Origin: an uncultured delta proteobacterium
Lineage (GTDB): Bacteria > Myxococcota_A > Polyangia > Polyangiales > Polyangiaceae
DNA length: 61,469 bases
Assembly (NCBI GenBank): GCA_903906315.1
Contig: CAIVJW010000245.1
Location: 1 to 61,469 of the forward strand
Direction: 5' to 3'
Below the pieces are notes generated by a model, which did not search any database, was not told the origin of the DNA, and saw only the letters and a program-made list of their open reading frames with translations. Positions 155-53,488 of this stretch are shown piece by piece. Positions within the stretch are counted from its first letter, which is position 1. Every line of letters starts with the position of its first letter. Both the position numbers and the translations under genes were made by a program.

Positions 155-829
155 TCAGTGCGCGCCGACCGGGACCTCGACCACGCCGCCGGGCGTCGGC
201 AGCTCGAAGTCGACCACCGCCTCCCAGGCCACCTTGTTCATCGCCGCGTCCTCCTTCGACGCGTAAACGGGCACGTTGACGCGGTACTTCGCCGCCGGGG
301 CAGACTGCGGCGTCTTGCAGTCGCAGCCGTCGACGGTCTTGCCGTACGTCAAGGTCACTCCCCCCCAACCCGTCTCTATCTCCTGCCCCGGATCGACGGC
401 GACGCCGTCATCCATGCACGCGCCGCAATCCATGCACCCGGGGCCGGACTGGCTGCAATCGACCATGCAGTCCCCGTGGATGGGCAGCGGAGCTCCCCAG
501 CCGTCCGCGCAGGCATAGACGTCGAGCTTCAGGTGGCATTCCTGACGGACGAACGCGGGCGCGCCGCCGTGGTTCGTCACCCGGAACGTCACGGCGTAGG
601 GCCCCGGGTCGGCCGTCGCGACCGCGCACTCGGCGGGCACCGTCGAGGTCGACGTGGTGGTGGTCGTGGTCGTGGTGGTCGGGTTCGTCACCGTGGTGGT
701 CGACCCGCCCCCCGCGCCCTGCCCGCCCTGGCCTCCGGTGGTGGCGGGCCGGTCGACGAGGACGTTGGCGTTGCAGGCGGCAAGGGCGGAGAAGGCGGCG
801 ACGACGACGACGGAAGTGATTCGGAGCAT
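155..829 (-). CDS. Secreted lipoprotein with poly-Thr linker and Cys-rich C-terminal domain (hypothetical)
   Basis: ATG at 829 with GAGAGG-like RBS upstream. N-terminal signal peptide MLRITSVVVVAAFSALAAC (lipobox). Gly/Thr-rich linker (TTTTTTTTTSTST), then a domain with about 12 Cys. The longer ORF upstream of this start is Arg-rich junk. Confidence 0.6.
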   Translation of the reverse strand: MLRITSVVVVAAFSALAACNANVLVDRPATTGGQGGQGAGGGSTTTVTNPTTTTTTTTTSTSTVPAECAVATADPGPYAVTFRVTNHGGAPAFVRQECHLKLDVYACADGWGAPLPIHGDCMVDCSQSGPGCMDCGACMDDGVAVDPGQEIETGWGGVTLTYGKTVDGCDCKTPQSAPAAKYRVNVPVYASKEDAAMNKVAWEAVVDFELPTPGGVVEVPVGAH

Positions 830-1239
830 GGGGACCTCTCGGGGCCGATTAGCGAGCTCGAGGCCGCACACGAACGCGCGGATTCGCGCCATGTTCGCAG
901 GTCGACGCGCGCGGCGCGAGCGCGCAGCCAGGCCCAGGCGGGTCGGCGCGCCGCGGTGGGGCCCTACCCTCGCCGCGAGCGCGAGCCCCTGGCCTTGCCG
1001 GCCGGATGGCGCCGGGACTTCCTGGCCGCCCAGCAGGCGGGCGGCCGGGGCGACCTCGTGACCGAGGCGCCGCGCGAGGGGTAAGTAGCTGCAAAGATTG
1101 CGTGGATGGCCTCGGACCCGGGAGGTGGACGCTGCGGCCCCGAGGGCCTTGCGATTCCCGCATCGCCGCCTTGACCGTGAGGTTGGAGCGGCGTATCCCG
1201 CGAGCCGCACGTCGTGTCGACGCAGGCTGGAGCACCCTG

Positions 1240-1995
1240 ATGCGCAAGAGCGGATGGCTGATCGGAGTCCTGGTGCTGCCCGTCGCGGCATGCAGCAACA
1301 GCAGCAACGGCGGCACGGAGGGTCAAGCGGGCAAGTCGGGGCTCTCCTCGACCCTCGTCCTGAGCGCGGCCACCGACGCCCAGAAGCTTCAGTTCTGCAA
1401 CTGGCTCGCGTCCGTCGCGCCGACCAACGCGTGCGGCGCGCCCTCCGCCTCGTCGGCGGACGGCGGGGCGCCGGCGGCGACCGACGGCGGGGCAAGCACG
1501 GCGACCGCCCAGTGCCTGGCTACCTTCACGAAGGTCACTGGGGACTGCACGGTGGAGGTGACCGAGCAGTGCTTCTCGAGCTGGGAGGCGTCGGGCTCCT
1601 GCCAAGCGCCCGCCACAGCGAGCTGCGTCGCCTACACCGCTTGCGTGCAGGCGACGCCTCCCACGAACGGCCCCGACACGCCAACGTCCTACAACTGCTA
1701 TCCCGCCGGGTCGCTGACCAGCGCCGGGACCATCGATGTCGAGCTGTGCAACGTTTCGGCGTTCGGGTGGTTGCCTGCCACGTACGACTTCTGCGGTGGG
1801 GGGAGCTATCCCGTGGGTCTGCCGGCTGTCGCCGTGCGGTGCAACAGCACCTACCCGAAGTGCAATGATTCGTGCTCGGCCTGCATCCTCGACGCTACCA
1901 CCATCAAGCCATCCGACCGATGCTTTGACAAGACCGGCAAACAGACCGTGAGCCCGTGCCTGCCTACCGGGCAGTGTCCATACCCCAACCCTTGA
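1240..1995 (+). CDS. Secreted Cys-rich lipoprotein (hypothetical)
   Basis: Start MRKSGWLIGVLVLPVAACSNSS (lipoprotein signal). Many Cys throughout. The reading frame upstream of this ATG is Arg/Pro-rich junk. Confidence 0.6.
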   Translation: MRKSGWLIGVLVLPVAACSNSSNGGTEGQAGKSGLSSTLVLSAATDAQKLQFCNWLASVAPTNACGAPSASSADGGAPAATDGGASTATAQCLATFTKVTGDCTVEVTEQCFSSWEASGSCQAPATASCVAYTACVQATPPTNGPDTPTSYNCYPAGSLTSAGTIDVELCNVSAFGWLPATYDFCGGGSYPVGLPAVAVRCNSTYPKCNDSCSACILDATTIKPSDRCFDKTGKQTVSPCLPTGQCPYPNP

Positions 1996-2408
1996 ACGGC
2001 AGTAGGAAGCTGACCTCCCGCCTCGGCCAGGACGGCGACCCCGTCAGCGTCGATTCGGATGGCTTCCGCGAAGGGACGACGAACCTTGGGCGGAATGCAA
2101 GCGGGTGCAGCGCCGTGCAGGGGTCGCCATTTCGCTGGGGTCTGGAGCGCCCGCCGCTCTGCAACCTGACGGACCCCCGTCGGCCACGATGAGGCCCTCG
2201 CGCGCGGCCTCCGTGATGGCGTGCTTGGGCCTCCTCCCGGCCGCGTGACGTCCACATGCACCGACCGCGGTCGAGGTTTCTCCAAAGCAGCTTCTCGGCG
2301 CGGCCCTCGTGCGCGGCGGGGCTTTGTGGGGTCGACCTGCGTGGACGGTAGGCGTCGAGGAAGGATGCGGGACCATTGCGAGGTGACCGCCCGTCGACAA
2401 GAACACGC

Positions 2409-2437
2409 TTGTCAAGCGTGCAGCGCTTCCGTACAAA
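2409..2437 (+). promoter_or_regulatory. Candidate sigma70-like promoter (-35 TTGTCA, 17-bp spacer, -10 TACAAA) overlapping palindrome GACAAG-N6-CTTGTC (2396-2413)
   Basis: Read directly from the sequence about 25 nt upstream of the GGGAGG RBS (2445-2450) of the repeat-peptide gene. Confidence 0.2.
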
Positions 2438-2462
2438 CAGGGGCCCAGGGAGGTTCCCCGTC

Positions 2463-2810
2463 ATGTCGAATACGCCGACCCGCCGCTCACTCATCGACCC
2501 CGCCACCGCCGCGCTGATCCTTGCGCCCTTCGCCCTCGGCGCCATCGCGGTCGAGGGGGGCTGCTCCTCCGACGAGACGGTCATCACCGCGACGGGCAGC
2601 GGCGGCGCCGGCGGCGGCGTCATGGCGATCATGGCCCAAGGCGGCGCGGGCGGCGGCGTCATGGCGATCATGGCCCAAGGCGGCGCCGGCGGCGCGGGCG
2701 GCGGCGTCTGGGCGATCGTGGCCCAGGGCGGCGCCGGCGGCGCGGGCGGCGGCGTCATGGCGATCATGGCCCAGGGCGGCGCCGGCGGCGCAGGCGGCAA
2801 GGGCGCGTAG
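2463..2810 (+). CDS. Small secreted repeat peptide; candidate precursor/substrate of the adjacent radical SAM/SPASM enzyme
   Basis: GGGAGG RBS 12 nt upstream of ATG. Tat-like leader TRRSLIDPATAALILAPFALGAIA with AxA cleavage site (AIA-VE). Core carries four tandem repeats GGAGG(AGG)GV[M/W]AI[M/V]AQ. Stop lies 6 nt before the radical SAM start. Confidence 0.6.
   Translation: MSNTPTRRSLIDPATAALILAPFALGAIAVEGGCSSDETVITATGSGGAGGGVMAIMAQGGAGGGVMAIMAQGGAGGAGGGVWAIVAQGGAGGAGGGVMAIMAQGGAGGAGGKGA
2601..2774 (+). repeat. Four tandem in-frame repeats (39-48 nt) encoding GGAGGG-VMAIMAQ / GGAGGAGGG-VWAIVAQ
   Basis: Near-identical DNA repeats ggcggcgccggcggcggcgtcatggcgatcatggcccaa... visible in the sequence. 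The antisense ORF 1964..3562 shows the mirror PPAPPAPPWAMIAMTPPP repeats. Confidence 0.8.
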
Positions 2811-2815
2811 GCCAG

Positions 2816-3898
2816 ATGTCCCTCGGCGTCGGCATCGAGGTCACCCGGCGCTGCAACTTCACCTGTCCGCATTGCTTCGTCGACGCGCGCTCGGCCAAGG
2901 GCAAGCCGCTCGGCGAGGCCGGCGGCGCGCCCGCGCCCGAATGGACGACGGCGGAGCTCGCGGCGCTCGTCCGTGATCTGGCCGCGTGCGGGACGACCGA
3001 CCTCTGCTGGTCGGGCGGAGAGCCGCTGCTGCGCGACGACCTCGAAGAGCTCACGCGTGAGGCTACGTCCAGGGGAATCTGCGTCTCGCTCGTGACGAAT
3101 GGCTCGCTCGCGACGCGCGATCGCCTCGCGCGCCTGCGGGCGAGCGGCCTCGCGACGGTGCAGATCAGCCTCGACGGCGCGACCCCCGAAGCCGCTGCGC
3201 GCATCCGGCGCGGGCCGAAGGCGGCCTTTCGTCGTGCGACCGAGGCGGCGCGCGCCGGCCTCGAGGCCGGCCTCGTGACACACCTCTGCTGCCTGTTGAC
3301 CCCGGAGACGGCCGCCGAGGTCGAGGACATGATCGCCCTCACGCGCGAGCTCGGCGTCCCCGTGCTCCGCTACGCCTCGTGGACGCCCGTCGGCCGCGCC
3401 GCGGGCGAGCGTTACGACGAGGACGCCTGGGCCTCGCCCTCCATTCGCCGGTTTCTCGAGGTCGCGCTCGGCGACCACGCCCCCGGCGTGCGCGTGCTCC
3501 TCGACTGCCCGCTCGGGCCGCACGCGGGCGCGCCGCGCTTTCGCTGCCGCGTCGGGCGTCACTCCATCTACGTCACGGCCGCCGGCGACGTCTTCCCGTG
3601 CACCGCGCTCATGTTCGACGCCTACCGCGCCGGAAACGTGCGAGAGCGGCCTCTCGCGGACATCGTCTTCGGCGCCGACATGTTCAAGGTGGAGCGCGAG
3701 ATCGCCGGGTCACTCCCCGGTGGGCGCTGCGGCACCTGCGGCCTCGTCGAGCACTGCCGCGGAGGCTGCCCCGGCAAGACGTACGCCGTCCACGGCGCCA
3801 TTCGCGGCGGCGAGGCCGACGGCGAGCAACCCGCCTGCTTGCTCGGCGTGCACGGCCTCGTGCGCGGGCCGCGCGGGGCACCCGGGCGTAGCGACTAG
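2816..3898 (+). CDS. Radical SAM/SPASM-domain peptide-modifying enzyme (anSME/PqqE/MftC-type maturase superfamily)
   Basis: N-terminal CNFTCPHC (Cx3Cx2C) radical SAM cluster motif. GGEPLL SAM-binding motif. C-terminal Cys-rich SPASM region (CPLGPH...C...CxxxGxxxxC...GRCGTCGLVEHCRGGCPGK). Confidence 0.85.
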   Translation: MSLGVGIEVTRRCNFTCPHCFVDARSAKGKPLGEAGGAPAPEWTTAELAALVRDLAACGTTDLCWSGGEPLLRDDLEELTREATSRGICVSLVTNGSLATRDRLARLRASGLATVQISLDGATPEAAARIRRGPKAAFRRATEAARAGLEAGLVTHLCCLLTPETAAEVEDMIALTRELGVPVLRYASWTPVGRAAGERYDEDAWASPSIRRFLEVALGDHAPGVRVLLDCPLGPHAGAPRFRCRVGRHSIYVTAAGDVFPCTALMFDAYRAGNVRERPLADIVFGADMFKVEREIAGSLPGGRCGTCGLVEHCRGGCPGKTYAVHGAIRGGEADGEQPACLLGVHGLVRGPRGAPGRSD

Positions 3899-4373: not shown

Positions 4374-6068
4374 CTAGCCGCGCATCGCCGCGATCGCGAG
4401 CCCGAGGAGCTTTCCCCACGAGGGCGCGGCCTCGAAGCGCGTGATCCTCGCGCCGACCTCGGCGAGCGTCTTGTGGTCGGCGAACCAGACCGGCGTCGGG
4501 AAGATGCGGAACGGCGCGCGCACGACCGACTTCTGGGGGTGATCGAAGAGCAGCGCGTTGTGCACCACCCCCGTGCCCGATCGGATGTCCTCGGGCGGGT
4601 GGCCGGGGAACGCGCCCCAGGTCGTGTTGACGAGCGCGTAGAGGACGGCCGGCCAGCAGTTCACGCCGATCCCGCCGTAGCGCAGCTCGGCAATCGCGCG
4701 ATCGAAGGCCTCGGCGTGGTCGCGCTCGGTCGCGGGGTGGATGAAGACGCCGCACGAGAGCGTGCCCCAGCAGCGGTCGTTGGCGAACGCGACGGCCTTC
4801 TCGAGGAAGTCGGCCGGCCCGCTCGCGTCGAGCGAGACCTCCGCGATCACGCCGCAGAAGGCCTCGTTCGAGAGCGCGTACTCGCCCTCGGCCGCCGGCA
4901 CGTCGGGCAGCACCGTCCACGGCACGACGCCCTCGGCGTCCGCGCCGACCGCGTCGGCCTTCGGGTAGTGCTCGACGAAGGCGCGCCAGCGGTCCTTCGC
5001 GCCCGGGTAGTAGGCCTTGCGCGGCGGCGTCCGGGCGAGCGCCTCGCGCACCTTCGCCAGGAACGCGCCCTCCTGCGCCCAGCCCTTCGCGGTCACGAGC
5101 ACCTTGGCCGCGTTGCAGTTGAAGCTCGCGTTCTGCGCGACCATGCCCGCGACGTGCCGCGCCTGGAACGCTAGGTCGGCCTCCGACCACGCGCCGGGGA
5201 CGATCAGGATCGGCGTCACGCAGCCGAGCTCCGCGGTGAACGGGCGCGCGTTCAGGCGGTCGCCCGAGGCCTTGCGGCGCGCCTGATCGGCCGGGTCGCG
5301 GCCCCACACGATCGCGTCGTAGGTGCGGTCCGACCCCGTCACGTGCAGCGTGTCGATCTGCGGGTGATCGGCCAGGTGCGCGCCGACCTCGGCGCCGCCG
5401 TACACGACCGCAAGGAAGCCGTCGTCGATGAGCGCCCGGAACGCGCGCTCGAGGCGCGGGCCGACGTGCGCGTTCACCGGGTTCATCTTGAGGACGACGA
5501 CCTCGTCCTCGACGAACAGCTTGTGGATCACGTCCATCGGCGGGATGGACGACACGTTGCCGGCGCCGAGCACCAGCGCGACGCGGCCGCTCTCGCGCTT
5601 GTTCCGGTAGCAGGCGCCCTGCGTCGCCTCGGCGCCGGGCTCGATCCAGACCTCGCCGACGAAGCCCGTGAACAGGGCACGGTCCATCAGGTTCTGCGGG
5701 AAGACGCGCGCGATCTTCTGGCCGTGGCGCGTCTCGATCGAGACGGGCGGCGGGCGACCGTCGTGCTCGAGCGCGTCGATGAGCAGGCGCAGGTTGCGGA
5801 TCGTCGGGTACGGGCCGGCGACCCACTCCTCGCCCTCGAGCGGCTCGCCGCGCGCGATGCCCTTGAGCGCGCAGCCGCCCGCGACCCAATCGTCGGCGAC
5901 CTCGATCACGCCCTCGATGGCGCGGCGGAGGTAGTCGAGCCGCTGCGCAATGCCCACCACGAGCCACGCGTCCTTCTTCGAGGCGACGCGCGCGACGAGC
6001 TCGTCGACGCGGGCTTTCGGGGTCGGAGGGACGGGCGCGGGCGGCTCCTGGAACGCGGGGGACGGCAT
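4374..6068 (-). CDS. Aldehyde dehydrogenase family protein
   Basis: Start MPSPAFQEPP at 6068; upstream in-frame residues are Arg/Pro junk. ALDH-like region GAGNVSSIPPMDVIHKLFVEDEVVVLKMNPVN...ELGCVTPILIV (catalytic Cys region). Confidence 0.8.
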   Translation of the reverse strand: MPSPAFQEPPAPVPPTPKARVDELVARVASKKDAWLVVGIAQRLDYLRRAIEGVIEVADDWVAGGCALKGIARGEPLEGEEWVAGPYPTIRNLRLLIDALEHDGRPPPVSIETRHGQKIARVFPQNLMDRALFTGFVGEVWIEPGAEATQGACYRNKRESGRVALVLGAGNVSSIPPMDVIHKLFVEDEVVVLKMNPVNAHVGPRLERAFRALIDDGFLAVVYGGAEVGAHLADHPQIDTLHVTGSDRTYDAIVWGRDPADQARRKASGDRLNARPFTAELGCVTPILIVPGAWSEADLAFQARHVAGMVAQNASFNCNAAKVLVTAKGWAQEGAFLAKVREALARTPPRKAYYPGAKDRWRAFVEHYPKADAVGADAEGVVPWTVLPDVPAAEGEYALSNEAFCGVIAEVSLDASGPADFLEKAVAFANDRCWGTLSCGVFIHPATERDHAEAFDRAIAELRYGGIGVNCWPAVLYALVNTTWGAFPGHPPEDIRSGTGVVHNALLFDHPQKSVVRAPFRIFPTPVWFADHKTLAEVGARITRFEAAPSWGKLLGLAIAAMRG

Positions 6069-51211: not shown

Positions 51212-51874
51212 TCACTCCGCGATCGCGAACTCGGGGCACACCTCGAAGCCCGCGAGGCAGGGGAAGTCGAGCCCCTGGATGGCCGAAAGGACGCAGCCGG
51301 CGAGCGCCTGCGAGCCGGACTGCACGTCGGTGACGTGTCCCGAGGCGTCGAGCACGATCTTGAAGTCGCCCTGCGTCGTGAGCAGGTCCGAGCAGGCCGC
51401 GACCATGGCGTCGATCATGCGCTGCGCGTCCGAATGCGCCCCGCCCTGCGCGTAGGTGTAGATCGCGGGCGAGGCCGTCTCGACGCAGGCCGCCGCGAGC
51501 GCCGCGGTGGCCGCGTCGCTCTGCGCCTTGGCGGCGGCGGCTCCTGCGGGCGTGTCGCACGGGCGGAGCCCGACCATGCCGGCGTACACGTCGAGCGAGA
51601 ACGACGCGATCGGCGGGGGCTGCTCGGTCACCCCGATCCCCCCCGAGTAGCACGCGGCGCCCGCCGCGACCGCGGCCTGGATCGAGGCCTCGGTCGGCCG
51701 CGGCGGCGGGTCCGGGCACCCGCCCGTCGTGGTCGTGGTGGTGGTCGTCGTGGAGATCGTCGTCGTACCCGTGGTGCTCCTGCCCCCCGGGCGGTCGACC
51801 GCGACGTTGCCCCCGCAGCCGATCGGCGCAGCGGCCATCGCGAACGTGAGCGCGCTGGCCGCGGCCGATCGCAT
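51212..51874 (-). other. Lipoprotein-like module (signal peptide + poly-Thr linker + Cys-containing domain); either nested in-frame gene or fused C-terminal domain of the radical SAM ORF
   Basis: In-frame ATG at 51874 gives MRSAAASALTFAMAAAPIGCGGNVAVDRPGGRSTTGTTTISTTTTTTTTTGGC..., same layout as the lipoprotein at 155..829. Confidence 0.35.
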
Positions 51875-53488
51875 CGGCGCGAACATGCGCGCCGTCGCGG
51901 GCGCGGCGCGCAGGAGCGACGCCTCGATCCGCTCGAGATCGCCCTCGAGCTCCTTCGCGGGTCGCGCGAGCCCGCGCACGAGCGCCTCCGCGTCCGCGAA
52001 GCCGCCGCCGGCCTCGACGAGCGCGAGCGCGCGCCGGTAGCCGTCGACGTAGAGGTGGTTGACGCGCGCGCGCACGCCCTCGAGCCGCGGGCCGACGTCG
52101 CCGCGCAGCCGCTCGGGGTGCAGGCGCCGGGCGAGCGCGAGCGCGAGGTGCGCGTCGTGCGTGCGGTACGCGACGGAGTAGTCCCAGAACGCCTCGGCGC
52201 GCACGCGCGTGAAGACGTCGGCGAGGCGCGTCATGGCCTCGTCGGCGAAGGTGTAGCCGTAGCGAAGCGGGTTGCCGACGACGCGGCCCTCGGCCGTGAG
52301 CCGATCGTGCAGCCGGGTGCCGTGGTAGACCTGCATCTTCGTCGCCTCGAAGACGCCCGCGGGCACACGCTCGAGGAGATCGAGGCCGGCCGCGACGGTG
52401 GCGAGCGTCGACTCCGGGTGCACGATCATCAGGTTCGACACGGTCGTCACCCCGGCGTCGGAGAGCGTCTGCAGGAGCGCGAGCTCACGCGCGCCGGGCG
52501 CGGTGCGGCCGTAGGCGCGGGCCTCGCCCGGGGTCGCGAGCTCGAGGCCGATGAACAGGCGCACGAGGCCGACCTCGGCGAACGCGCGCGCGATCCGGGG
52601 CGTCACGCGGTCGGCGCGCAGCATCGCGCCGATGCCGAGCGCGCCGACGCCCCGCGCCCGCAGGCCCTCGCGCCACGCGGCGAGGTACGCGAGCGCGTCG
52701 TCCTCGCCGTACGGCAGAAGGTGCTCGTCGACGAAGTAGAAATAGCGCGCCCCGCGCGCGTGCCATAGCTCGGCCATCTCGTCGCACACGGCCTCGAGGT
52801 CGCGCCGCCGCACGCCGCCGACGCCGGCGATCGAGAGCGTGCGCGGCGCGTGACCGGCGCGCACGCCCTCGCGGCGCTCCTCGGTCTGCAGCGCGGCCGG
52901 ACCGCAGTACGCGCAGCGGCCGCGGCAGCCGCGCGACGCCGTCATGTGCGCGGCCGGGTGGCCGAGGATCTCGGGCAGCTCGTCACGCGAGGGGCGGAGC
53001 GCGGTCGGCCCGAGGTCGAGCACCGGCGCGGGCGGGCCGTCGCCCTCGCGCGTGGTGACGCCGGGCACGCCGAAGACGGCCTGCCCGCGGCCGACACGCG
53101 CCGCGATCTCGACGATCGGCGCCTCGCCCGCGAAGCGGACCACGCTGTGGAGCCACGGGTGCCGCGCGAGCAACCACTCGCGCGCGAGCGTCGCGAACGG
53201 CCCGCCGCACGTGACGTGCCCGCGAAACCCGGCGCGCGCGAGCGCCTCGCCGAGCGCGAGCGGCAGGACCGCCGATCCGCCGTCCGCGAGCGACAGGCCG
53301 ACCACGCCCGGCCGGGCGGCGAGGATGGCCACGACCGCGCGCGCGAGCTCGACCGCGTCGTTGACGTAGTGGACGGACACCGCGGTCCCGGCCTGCTCCA
53401 GCGCGGCGCGCAGGTACGCGAGCCCGAGGTTCTCGTTGTGCGGGAGACGACGACCGACGAGCGCGACGGCGGCTGCGGGGACGACCAT
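51212..53488 (-). CDS. B12-binding-domain radical SAM protein; ORF continues in frame into a lipoprotein-like C-terminal module
   Basis: N-terminal B12-binding-like region, then SRGCRGRCAYCG (Cx3Cx2C). rSAM similarity ends about residue 535. The same frame, with no stop, continues into MRSAAASALTFAMAAAPIGCGG + poly-Thr linker + Cys-containing domain. Confidence 0.7.
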   Translation of the reverse strand: MVVPAAAVALVGRRLPHNENLGLAYLRAALEQAGTAVSVHYVNDAVELARAVVAILAARPGVVGLSLADGGSAVLPLALGEALARAGFRGHVTCGGPFATLAREWLLARHPWLHSVVRFAGEAPIVEIAARVGRGQAVFGVPGVTTREGDGPPAPVLDLGPTALRPSRDELPEILGHPAAHMTASRGCRGRCAYCGPAALQTEERREGVRAGHAPRTLSIAGVGGVRRRDLEAVCDEMAELWHARGARYFYFVDEHLLPYGEDDALAYLAAWREGLRARGVGALGIGAMLRADRVTPRIARAFAEVGLVRLFIGLELATPGEARAYGRTAPGARELALLQTLSDAGVTTVSNLMIVHPESTLATVAAGLDLLERVPAGVFEATKMQVYHGTRLHDRLTAEGRVVGNPLRYGYTFADEAMTRLADVFTRVRAEAFWDYSVAYRTHDAHLALALARRLHPERLRGDVGPRLEGVRARVNHLYVDGYRRALALVEAGGGFADAEALVRGLARPAKELEGDLERIEASLLRAAPATARMFAPMRSAAASALTFAMAAAPIGCGGNVAVDRPGGRSTTGTTTISTTTTTTTTTGGCPDPPPRPTEASIQAAVAAGAACYSGGIGVTEQPPPIASFSLDVYAGMVGLRPCDTPAGAAAAKAQSDAATAALAAACVETASPAIYTYAQGGAHSDAQRMIDAMVAACSDLLTTQGDFKIVLDASGHVTDVQSGSQALAGCVLSAIQGLDFPCLAGFEVCPEFAIAE

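Follow-up and report, generated by a model that had tools for sequence, protein, structure and literature searches.

In a 61,469-nucleotide contig of an uncultured delta proteobacterium of the Polyangiaceae (CAIVJW010000245.1, assembly GCA_903906315.1; the whole stretch is referred to here as the window), a small open reading frame (ORF) encoding a Gly-rich repeat protein was found directly ahead of a gene for a radical S-adenosylmethionine (SAM) enzyme with a SPASM domain. Both genes lie on one strand, with 5 nt between the TAG of the first and the ATG of the second. The gene pair, the enzyme class and a family-wide coupling of this type of enzyme with a short repeated motif were directly established. 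To judge from comparative sequence data, the enzyme and the motif-bearing ORF very probably constitute an undescribed protein-modification system. It is on balance probable that the two genes form a cassette in which the small ORF provides an exported repeat substrate and the enzyme acts as a motif-directed maturase at Ile. The small gene comprised the following elements.

2447 to 2453, plus strand: ribosome-binding site AGGGAGG, spaced 9 nt from the ATG
2463 to 2810, plus strand: small ORF, putative substrate (precursor) of 115 residues, start ATG at 2463, stop TAG at 2808 to 2810
2463 to 2564, plus strand: signal-like N-terminus, residues 1 to 34, with T-R-R-S-L-I, a hydrophobic stretch at residues 13 to 30, A-I-A/V-E-G-G and Cys34, from hydropathy
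2601 to 2798, plus strand: tandem DNA array of four repeats with Gly/Ala linkers (Tandem Repeats Finder, period 39 nt with 96% matches and period 48 nt with 92%)
2616 to 2639, plus strand: motif unit 1, G-V-M-A-I-M-A-Q
2655 to 2678, plus strand: motif unit 2, G-V-M-A-I-M-A-Q
2703 to 2726, plus strand: motif unit 3, the variant G-V-W-A-I-V-A-Q
2751 to 2774, plus strand: motif unit 4, G-V-M-A-I-M-A-Q

An earlier, sequence-only reading of this DNA had described a 115-residue ORF with a strong ribosome-binding site and four near-identical units, repeated at the DNA level and including one VWAIVAQ variant. All of this was present, with GVMAIMAQ occurring three times and GVWAIVAQ once. Some details required correction: the linker GGAGGG, assigned to every unit, was found for the first two, while the last two linkers are GGAGGAGGG (lengths 6, 6, 9 and 9 residues); position 2396, the first of the range cited, is not the start of the ORF and is the first base of a small upstream inverted repeat; and the gap to the radical SAM gene, given as 6 nt, was measured as 5 nt. 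The layout of the protein is MSNTPTRRSLIDPATAALILAPFALGAIAVEGGC-SSDETVITATGS-(GGAGGG-VMAIMAQ)x2-GGAGGAGGG-VWAIVAQ-GGAGGAGGG-VMAIMAQ-GGAGGAGGKGA, with no Cys in the repeat region and Trp in one unit of the four.

The small ORF is a real coding frame, as established by its third-position base composition, an independently called start and the rarity of its motif. In a window with a G+C content of 73.9%, the G+C content at third codon positions (GC3) was 0.948 in the frame of the small ORF, with the leader part and the repeats alike, compared with 0.908 for the radical SAM gene and 0.59 to 0.79 for overlapping frames. An independent gene caller, applied to further contigs from this organism, had chosen the identical ATG (P0270). 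A loose form of the motif occurred five times in the 115,917 residues of the six-frame translation of the window, four of them within the small ORF. The closest relative, L161, showed the same ggaggttcc...ATG arrangement as the ribosome-binding site and start in the window, and its ORF matched the small ORF in architecture (hydrophobic region, Cys, Ser/Thr spacer, four motifs and a GGKGA end). A minus-strand ORF at 1964 to 3562 and the overlapping plus-strand frames were rejected as high-GC artefacts on the basis of the same GC3 values. In ENA ERZ1426679 and related assemblies of the same organism, the otherwise identical small protein was present with one repeat (70 residues; P0270) instead of four (115 residues), reflecting either repeat collapse in short-read assembly or true copy-number variation of the motif array.

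The following features were assigned to the enzyme, with residues numbered from its start.

2816 to 3898, plus strand: radical SAM/SPASM enzyme, putative maturase of 360 residues without an N-terminal RRE, the recognition element of enzymes for peptides that are ribosomally synthesized and modified after translation (RiPPs); Pfam PF04055 and PF13186
2852 to 2875, plus strand: C13-x3-C17-x2-C20 (C-N-F-T-C-P-H-C), radical SAM [4Fe-4S] ligands, invariant in 28 of 28 members
3014 to 3022, plus strand: G67-G68-E69 within S66-G-G-E69, SAM-binding motif, located where predicted strand beta2 ends, invariant in the alignment
3287 to 3289, plus strand: Cys158, family-specific and not part of the cluster motifs, within predicted strand beta5, conserved in all 28 members
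3506 to 3838, plus strand: SPASM region with eight invariant Cys (C231, C244-x12-G-x4-C262, C305-x2-C308-x5-C314-x3-C318, C341), in 28 of 28 members

The scores against Pfam Radical_SAM (PF04055; 91.3 bits, gathering threshold 29.5) and SPASM (PF13186; 35.3 bits, gathering threshold 21.5) place the enzyme in the radical SAM superfamily and its SPASM subfamily, and the CNFTCPHC cluster, the GGE motif and the C-terminal SPASM Cys residues noted in the earlier reading were all found. Across an alignment of 28 members the mean column identity was 54%, and 12 Cys were invariant, comprising the three radical SAM ligands, the eight SPASM residues and C158, at whose aligned position PqqE has Asn and SkfB has Ala. 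The eight SPASM Cys are predicted to suffice for the ligation of two auxiliary [4Fe-4S] clusters.

An AlphaFold2 model built from the family alignment (mean predicted local distance difference test score 84.9) showed a partial TIM barrel beginning at residue 3, which would leave no room for an N-terminal RRE; the start of the cluster motif at residue 13 also indicates that this domain is lacking. The nearest solved structures to the model were PqqE, SkfB, SuiB and anSME, with TM-scores of 0.63 to 0.71. The top TM-score of 0.71 was obtained for anSME at an identity of 17 to 19%, and the Foldseek ranking was led by PqqE (6C8V), with EpeE at rank 44 (TMq 0.41). When the family profile was compared with solved structures, PqqE 6C8V was matched over its full length (E 6e-33), followed by SkfB, CteB, EpeE (38.9 bits) and TigE (8VPO; 36 bits). 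The MftC and PqqE models aligned to the enzyme end to end.

A hidden Markov model search against radical SAM/SPASM subfamilies had been proposed earlier, with the possibility that the enzyme might land in a non-peptide subfamily. It did not, and no NCBIfam cutoff was reached; five named models (AhbD, NirJ, PqqE, MftC and StsB) gave 100 to 135 bits against cutoffs of 265 to 650. The highest-scoring models discussed here were as follows.

StsB (NF045574): 133.5 bits, cutoff 625
TIGR04347, haloarchaeal pseudo-SAM family: 122 bits, cutoff 525
TIGR04053: 120 bits, cutoff 395
AhbD: 120 bits, cutoff 500
MftC (TIGR03962): 112.7 bits, cutoff 265
PqqE (TIGR02109): 110.6 bits, cutoff 381
NirJ: 104 bits, cutoff 515

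The enzyme did not group with the heme or heme d1 enzymes, as the AhbC, AhbD and NirJ models scored 103 to 120 bits against cutoffs of 500 to 650 and the called neighbours gave no tetrapyrrole gene context. Nor did it group with the sacti- and ranthipeptide maturases, given the StsB score and the Cys-free repeat region. It appears reasonable that the earlier reading set aside sacti-, ranthi-, strepti- and daro-type chemistry, since the core is free of Cys and conserves no aromatic residue.

A search of 5.8 billion proteins returned ∼64 clusters at 290 to 810 bits and 45 to 77% identity, with the next scores below 200 bits; the source names for this family were generic only (“radical SAM protein with 4Fe4S-binding SPASM domain”). 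In a 50%-identity library the whole close family was reduced to one representative (P0007, 546 bits). The next entries after it, P0121 to P0123 (320 to 367 bits), were double radical SAM/SPASM modules of 736 to 854 residues with a Lys/Pro-rich linker. The genome records of close relatives were metagenome-assembled genomes (MAGs), mostly of Myxococcales/Myxococcota, with one from Pseudomonadota and one from Anaerolineales, and no cultured organism carrying a close relative was found among them.

Short repetitive precursors escape whole-protein searches, and with the small ORF as query the sole match was its own 70-residue variant; synteny was therefore used instead. Every close-family locus with available DNA was examined, giving 18 distinct loci including the window. 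A metagenome scan added at least four close loci. An adjacent same-strand ORF carrying the motif was found in 16 of the 18, comprising the window plus 15 of 17 related loci (L161 to L163, L164, L001 to L008, L081, L082, L107, L165 and L166), and the co-occurrence check proposed earlier thus returned a syntenic pairing of enzyme homologues with motif-bearing repeat ORFs. The motif ORF was usually positioned 8 to 100 nt upstream of the enzyme gene and three times downstream. The core shared by these ORFs was hydrophobic-x-Ile/Val-[M/L/I/V]-[P/A]-[P/Q], in one to eight copies per ORF, in the following forms.

L161 to L163: A-A-A-I-L-A-P and three copies of A-I-A-I-M-A-P; enzyme 77% identical, layout as in the window, ending GGKGA
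L164: P-Y-P-I-M-A-P; enzyme 75% identical
L002, L081, L166: four to five copies of [I/L/V]-[Y/W]-A-[I/V]-[M/L/V]-P-P; lipoprotein-type signals
L082: I-Y-A-V-M-P-P, V-Y-Y-I-M-A-Q and I-Y-Y-V-M-A-W
L001: eight copies of G-P-x-[Y/F/G/N]-I-[M/L/I/V]-[P/A]-P
L005: seven copies of G-P-I-[N/G/A/Y]-I-[I/L]-A-x-P-P
L003, L004, L006, L008, L107: two to four copies of P-I-Y-I-[L/M/I]-[P/A]-P
L007, L165: one copy each, L165 being a 46-residue peptide ending G-I-Y-Y-I-L-P-I-D-K

In L161, the I-M-A core was kept in A-I-A-I-M-A-P while the linker composition differed from that of the window. From the 16 loci, 57 motif instances were curated, anchored on the aliphatic pair, with the following residue counts.

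Position -2: I 23, Y 17, M 6, L 4, W 3
Position -1: A 23, Y 22, G 4, N 4, P 3
Position 0: I 53, V 4
Position +1: M 24, L 19, I 9, V 5
Position +2: P 30, A 25
Position +3: P 38, Q 6

The restriction at positions 0 to +2 is partly built in because those positions form part of the anchoring pattern, which is not the case for the Ile:Val ratio or the variability at -1 and -2. The motif core contained no Cys, Ser, Thr, Lys, Asp or Glu, and neither a nucleophile nor a partner residue was conserved. An aromatic residue (Tyr, Trp or Phe) was present at -1 or -2 in 39 of the 57 instances; the 18 without one included three of the four window units, all four in L161 and six of seven in L005.

Outside the motif, the partner proteins were unrelated. 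A signal followed by Cys was found in six loci, a conserved helical domain of ∼100 residues in five, a LysM-like start in one and a short leader in one, and the linkers (G/A, G/Q, PGTGHD, RDAG and KKDD) were also unrelated across loci. The flanking genes differed completely between loci. Because N-termini, linkers and flanking genes share no relationship among the loci, it is the motif and not the leader that, by this comparison, travels with the enzyme. Some loci carry a second, different radical SAM/SPASM gene (described below), and across all loci only the window-type enzyme co-occurred with the I-Phi-P-P motif, which points to specialisation by motif. When the small ORF and the precursors of six relatives were searched against Pfam and NCBIfam, no family was found, with sub-threshold noise only (for example, LysM and SpoVM). 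The partner in most relatives was a protein of 90 to 290 residues rather than a small peptide, so the earlier description of the system as RiPP-like holds in the broad sense of a ribosomal precursor adjoining a modifying enzyme. In that sense it applies to 16 of the 18 loci, with the modification itself presumed.

These data also bear on whether the small ORF is a substrate at all. It could be a spurious GC-rich ORF or an unrelated secreted protein, with the enzyme having a cofactor or a different protein as its target, as AhbD/NirJ or anSME do. Such a role would fit with the similar NCBIfam scores of the heme enzymes AhbD and NirJ and of the peptide maturases, with the retrieval of only itself by the small ORF, with the two family loci that have no motif ORF, and with the lack of a dedicated protease or transporter, noted earlier for the window pair and matched by the finding of none conserved nearby in the loci read. 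On the other hand, the heme and cofactor models all scored far below their cutoffs, and the called neighbours (aldehyde dehydrogenase, hydrolase and metallo-beta-lactamase-fold protein) included no heme d1, alternative-heme or sulfatase genes. The motif recurs beside the enzyme despite unrelated flanking genes and nucleotide sequences, and the GC3 value and the strong ribosome-binding site point to a real gene. A small ORF that is not the substrate is considered very improbable.

For the window cassette, we infer the following course of events. The small ORF would encode an exported, largely disordered repeat protein, and the enzyme encoded 5 nt downstream would act on it as its substrate. This enzyme would recognise the motif itself (in the window V-[M/W]-A-I-[M/V]-A-Q) and not a leader peptide, because the leaders are unrelated, the enzyme has no RRE and no PqqD-like gene was found among the called neighbours. 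At each repeat, reductive cleavage of SAM would generate a 5'-deoxyadenosyl radical to take a hydrogen from either the near-invariant Ile or the residue directly beside it, and the reaction would recur at every unit. The outcome we prefer, tentatively and at less than even odds, is a two-electron oxidation (-2 Da per repeat), in which the two auxiliary clusters would carry the electron away. It would leave the Ile side chain either unsaturated or with a new C-C bond. Restriction of the change to the Ile region is favoured because no nucleophile or partner is conserved and an aromatic residue is absent from 18 of the 57 units. The leaning towards -2 Da stems from the retention of all eight SPASM Cys and from the nearest relatives (PqqE, SkfB, CteB, SuiB and anSME), all of which are two-electron oxidising SPASM enzymes. 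A short synthetic peptide, GGGVMAIMAQGG, would be a proposed substrate for the enzyme alongside a four-repeat peptide. In the cell, modification would take place in the cytoplasm, before export.

The cassette may work, by analogy, like the cyclopropyl synthases without being one of them. TvgB/TvgA and TigE/TigB produce poly-cyclopropylglycine RiPPs (PMC9062424, PMC10878394); TvgB acts on TVGG repeats, and TigE turns the Ile of TIGSVS repeats into methylcyclopropylglycine (PMC10878394). In these systems, as in the window, a radical SAM/SPASM enzyme adjoins a precursor of tandem short motifs. The sole conserved reactive residue of the TVGG and TIGSVS motifs is Val or Ile, with no Cys or aromatic partner. 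Tandem short motifs of this kind were found in the four window units, and the counts of 53 Ile and 4 Val at position 0 across all 57 instances follow the same pattern. TigE also acts on a leaderless three-repeat peptide, comparable to the leader independence proposed here. However, the GYW motif, which is strictly conserved and essential in cyclopropyl synthases and whose Tyr ligates auxiliary cluster I (PMC10878394), was missing from all 28 aligned members, and membership of that class was ruled out on this basis. TigE (8VPO, 472 residues) also differs from the window enzyme in having an N-terminal RRE, its similarity was confined to the core, and the window cassette lacks the transporter, peptidase and oxidase genes of the tvg and tig clusters.

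PqqE and MftC gave the best full-length matches and share with the enzyme a complete SPASM domain for two auxiliary clusters, but their scores were far below the curated cutoffs (110.6 versus 381 and 112.7 versus 265). They require a PqqD/MftB chaperone and act once, on a Tyr-containing site in a short peptide, whereas the window system has multiple sites, no chaperone gene (no PqqD-family gene was found among the called neighbours) and no need of Tyr. The enzyme also resembles anSME, a compact SPASM enzyme of ∼370 residues without an RRE that gave the highest TM-score to the model. anSME recognises a short motif within a protein and acts in the cytoplasm on a substrate with an export signal, and export of an already modified protein would run parallel to this. 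It differs in that its target motif, C/S-x-P-x-R, is absent here, in its low identity of 17 to 19%, and in modifying a single site rather than tandem repeats.

A sole near-invariant Ile/Val with no conserved reaction partner would also suit a redox-neutral epimerisation of that residue to the D-form. Known radical SAM epimerases act on Ile/Val: EpeE/YydG does so in a ribosomal peptide (EpeX) by C-alpha hydrogen abstraction, after which hydrogen is re-donated by a Cys thiol of EpeE (PMC13012085). An additional invariant Cys of the family, C158, could be considered for such a role, and an epimerised, exported Gly-rich protein would be protease-resistant or conformationally locked. The match to EpeE is distant, however, with its 38.9 bits extending over the N-terminal region only and a Foldseek rank of 44. 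C158 is located in predicted strand beta5 of the barrel and not on any flexible loop at the substrate's far side; because strand beta5 generally lines the SAM adenine pocket in radical SAM folds, C158 is not an obvious equivalent of the EpeE loop residue. The T-SPASM domain of EpeE carries a single auxiliary cluster, and the hydrogen donor of EpeE, Cys223, is on a loop (PMC13012085), whereas the family keeps the full set of eight SPASM Cys. Epimerisation is regarded as unlikely.

The 39 instances with Tyr, Trp or Phe at -1 or -2 raise the further possibility of an aromatic-to-aliphatic C-C cross-link from that residue to Ile, in the triceptide or Ile-Trp manner, in which case the V-W-A-I-V-A-Q unit alone would carry the modification in the window, with the Met units left silent. 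PqqE and MftC, the nearest characterised relatives by sequence, both act on Tyr. Triceptide systems (XYE, GRR and FXS types) typically combine an enzyme of the radical SAM/SPASM class (PMC11499958) with repeated short motifs, some of them in Gly-rich surroundings. Against a cross-link, the 18 instances without an aromatic residue were otherwise equally well conserved, and the spacing between the aromatic residue and Ile varied, being adjacent in P-I-Y-I-L-P-P and i+2 in I-Y-A-I-M-P-P. In triceptides, an aromatic residue stands at position 1 of each modified three-residue motif; here Trp occurs in one of the four window units, and no triceptide-enzyme model was among the 25 best NCBIfam matches. 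A cross-link of this type is held to be distinctly improbable.

With regard to export, the window protein begins with T-R-R-S-L-I-D, followed by the hydrophobic stretch and A-I-A-V-E-G-G-C. Twin-arginine translocation signals have the consensus S/T-R-R-x-F-L-K ahead of a moderately hydrophobic region, and the lipobox consensus at the end of a signal peptide is [LVI][ASTVI][GAS]C. In L002, L081, L082 and L166, an n-region and a hydrophobic region were followed by L-G-G-C, L-G-S-C, A-P-G-C or V-A-G-C. Six precursors in all bore an n-region, a hydrophobic region and a Cys, with RR in the n-region of five. The Tat leader named in the earlier reading is no more than plausible, as is twin-arginine, lipoprotein-type export of the already modified protein from these signals, and an RR-containing signal with Cys after the hydrophobic region would carry the product across the membrane, possibly as a lipoprotein. 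Basic C-terminal tails were observed on nearly all of the motif proteins of the window, L161, L001, L003, L004, L006, L008 and L107 (GGKGA, KVKK, KGKK, KRTRK, GGKKK, DTKKK and RKRTRRKDG). At 5590 to 5660 of L161, and also in L162 and L163, the ribosome-binding site, ATG and “MARKTRRS” were conserved, and a 7-nt deletion relative to the window shifts this start off the frame of the hydrophobic region and repeats. The repeat frame of L161 has no canonical start ahead of an internal ATG. The gene could be decaying or have suffered a frameshift, or the loci could have an assembly error in common.

Several points weigh against the proposed motif-directed modification and export of the small protein. 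The lipobox-like site of the window, V-E-G-G-C, is atypical in having Glu at -3, and cleavage at the A-I-A signal peptidase I site that precedes the Cys is an equally possible alternative. The RR start of L161 is out of frame with its repeats. No promoter or terminator was detected in a consensus scan, and at L168/L083 and L169/L170 no recognisable motif ORF was found within 6 kb. The motif table is partly circular, as its regular expression anchored positions 0 to +2. Within the radical SAM superfamily, fold and sequence neighbours do not predict chemistry. Finally, GYW, which is required by the only known enzymes forming intraresidue C-C bonds at Ile/Val (PMC10878394), is absent from the enzyme.

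Upstream of the small ORF, the following region was read directly.

2396 to 2437, plus strand: upstream region with inverted repeats GACAAG-n6-CTTGTC (2396 to 2413) and AAGCG-n5-CGCTT (2414 to 2428)

These repeats are overlapped by a sigma-70-like pair, TTGTCA (2409 to 2414) and TACAAA (2432 to 2437), separated by 17 nt and ending ∼26 nt before the ATG. The pair was unreported by the consensus scan because its -10 hexamer ends in a base other than T. Together the inverted repeats and the -35/-10-like pair could be a candidate promoter or operator; this region of the window was not conserved in L161. Rfam and tRNA scans found nothing.

Further observations concern the wider enzyme clade. In L007 (3138 to 4217), and also in L003, L004, L006 and L008, a second, different radical SAM/SPASM gene was located on the other side of the precursor. 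These second enzymes are ∼52% identical to each other and 29% identical to the window type, and their best NCBIfam matches, a GDL-motif maturase (201 bits) and nif11-class maturase 3 (194 bits), were both below cutoff. A further repeat type, K-Y-[M/G/A]-V-x-P-P, is present in the precursors of these five two-enzyme loci, and the second enzyme may act on it. Repeat proteins also preceded distant enzyme relatives (L009 to L011, L012 to L013): at 38% identity with 8 to 10 copies of R-M-M-Y-G-I-F-P-V-A-P-S-P-Y-G-G, and at ∼30% identity with 9 copies of K-[I/L]-A-P-[D/E]-P-P-D. Because such distant relatives also adjoin repeat proteins, repeat-protein modification seems to be a trait of the wider clade; relatives below ∼30% identity were not flanked by repeat proteins. 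A splicease reading, which depends on X-Y-G motifs and was prompted by the relatives with MYGIFP and by the additional enzyme of some loci, was rejected, as the window has neither Tyr-Gly nor a second enzyme.

Other genes were observed near some members. L165 (786 to 7351) contains several radical SAM genes, among them those for a B12-binding radical SAM protein of 781 residues and a 453-residue radical SAM protein, together with a von Willebrand factor A protein. Its downstream 46-residue peptide combines a Cys-rich CFFADCDDC with the single C-terminal G-I-Y-Y-I-L-P-I-D-K. The window itself holds two more radical SAM genes, one of them B12-binding, and a pyridoxal phosphate-dependent decarboxylase with a tyrosine-decarboxylase C-terminal domain (43214 to 44134, minus strand; 51212 to 53488, minus strand; 38529 to 40610, plus strand); all three are 35 to 50 kb from the cassette, with no evident link to it. 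Immediately upstream of the cassette are two genes (155 to 832, minus strand; 1237 to 1992, plus strand) for Cys-rich proteins with lipoprotein-like N-termini (...SALAAC... and ...PVAAC...) and no Pfam match, which were not conserved beside the enzyme in relatives.

The combination of a radical SAM/SPASM maturase and a multi-core repeat precursor is already known as a general kind. Not previously known, as far as the curated models and the searched literature show, are the motif, the family to which the enzyme belongs, a layout independent of a leader, and substrates that bear signals. No curated Pfam or NCBIfam model was specific to the enzyme family or to any precursor. No description of the enzyme family was found in full-text literature, which is absence of evidence only, as subscription journals are thinly covered, and full-text searches with the motif strings YILPP, YAIMP, YIMPP, MYGIFP, AIMAP and YIMAP returned nothing relevant. 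The sequence-only reading had matched the pair to no described class, and neither the curated models nor the searched literature supplied one; its proposal of a precursor/maturase pair of a class not yet described gains support from the synteny in 16 of 18 loci and from the failure of the enzyme to reach any NCBIfam cutoff.

Radical SAM/SPASM enzymes with repeat precursors have recently given new chemistry, including cyclopropylglycine and strained cyclophanes, and the family described here offers a compact, testable pair of a 360-residue enzyme and an 8-residue motif. The product is likely to be an aliphatic side-chain modification or a stereochemical change because the motif contains no nucleophile or obligatory aromatic residue. 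All known members come from uncultured Myxococcota-type MAGs, which leaves gene synthesis as the sole route to the family. In its fullest form, the proposal would amount to a new-to-proteins modification of an unactivated aliphatic Ile in hydrophobic-x-I-hydrophobic-[P/A], installed independently of a leader or RRE on tandem motifs of full-length exported or lipid-anchored proteins, and this we consider rather doubtful. With signal-bearing, lipoprotein-like targets in part of the family, chemistry of this kind would reach beyond secreted peptides to proteins of the envelope and, if the proposal is true, the system would represent a protein-level radical SAM modification of the Myxococcota cell envelope rather than a small-molecule RiPP.

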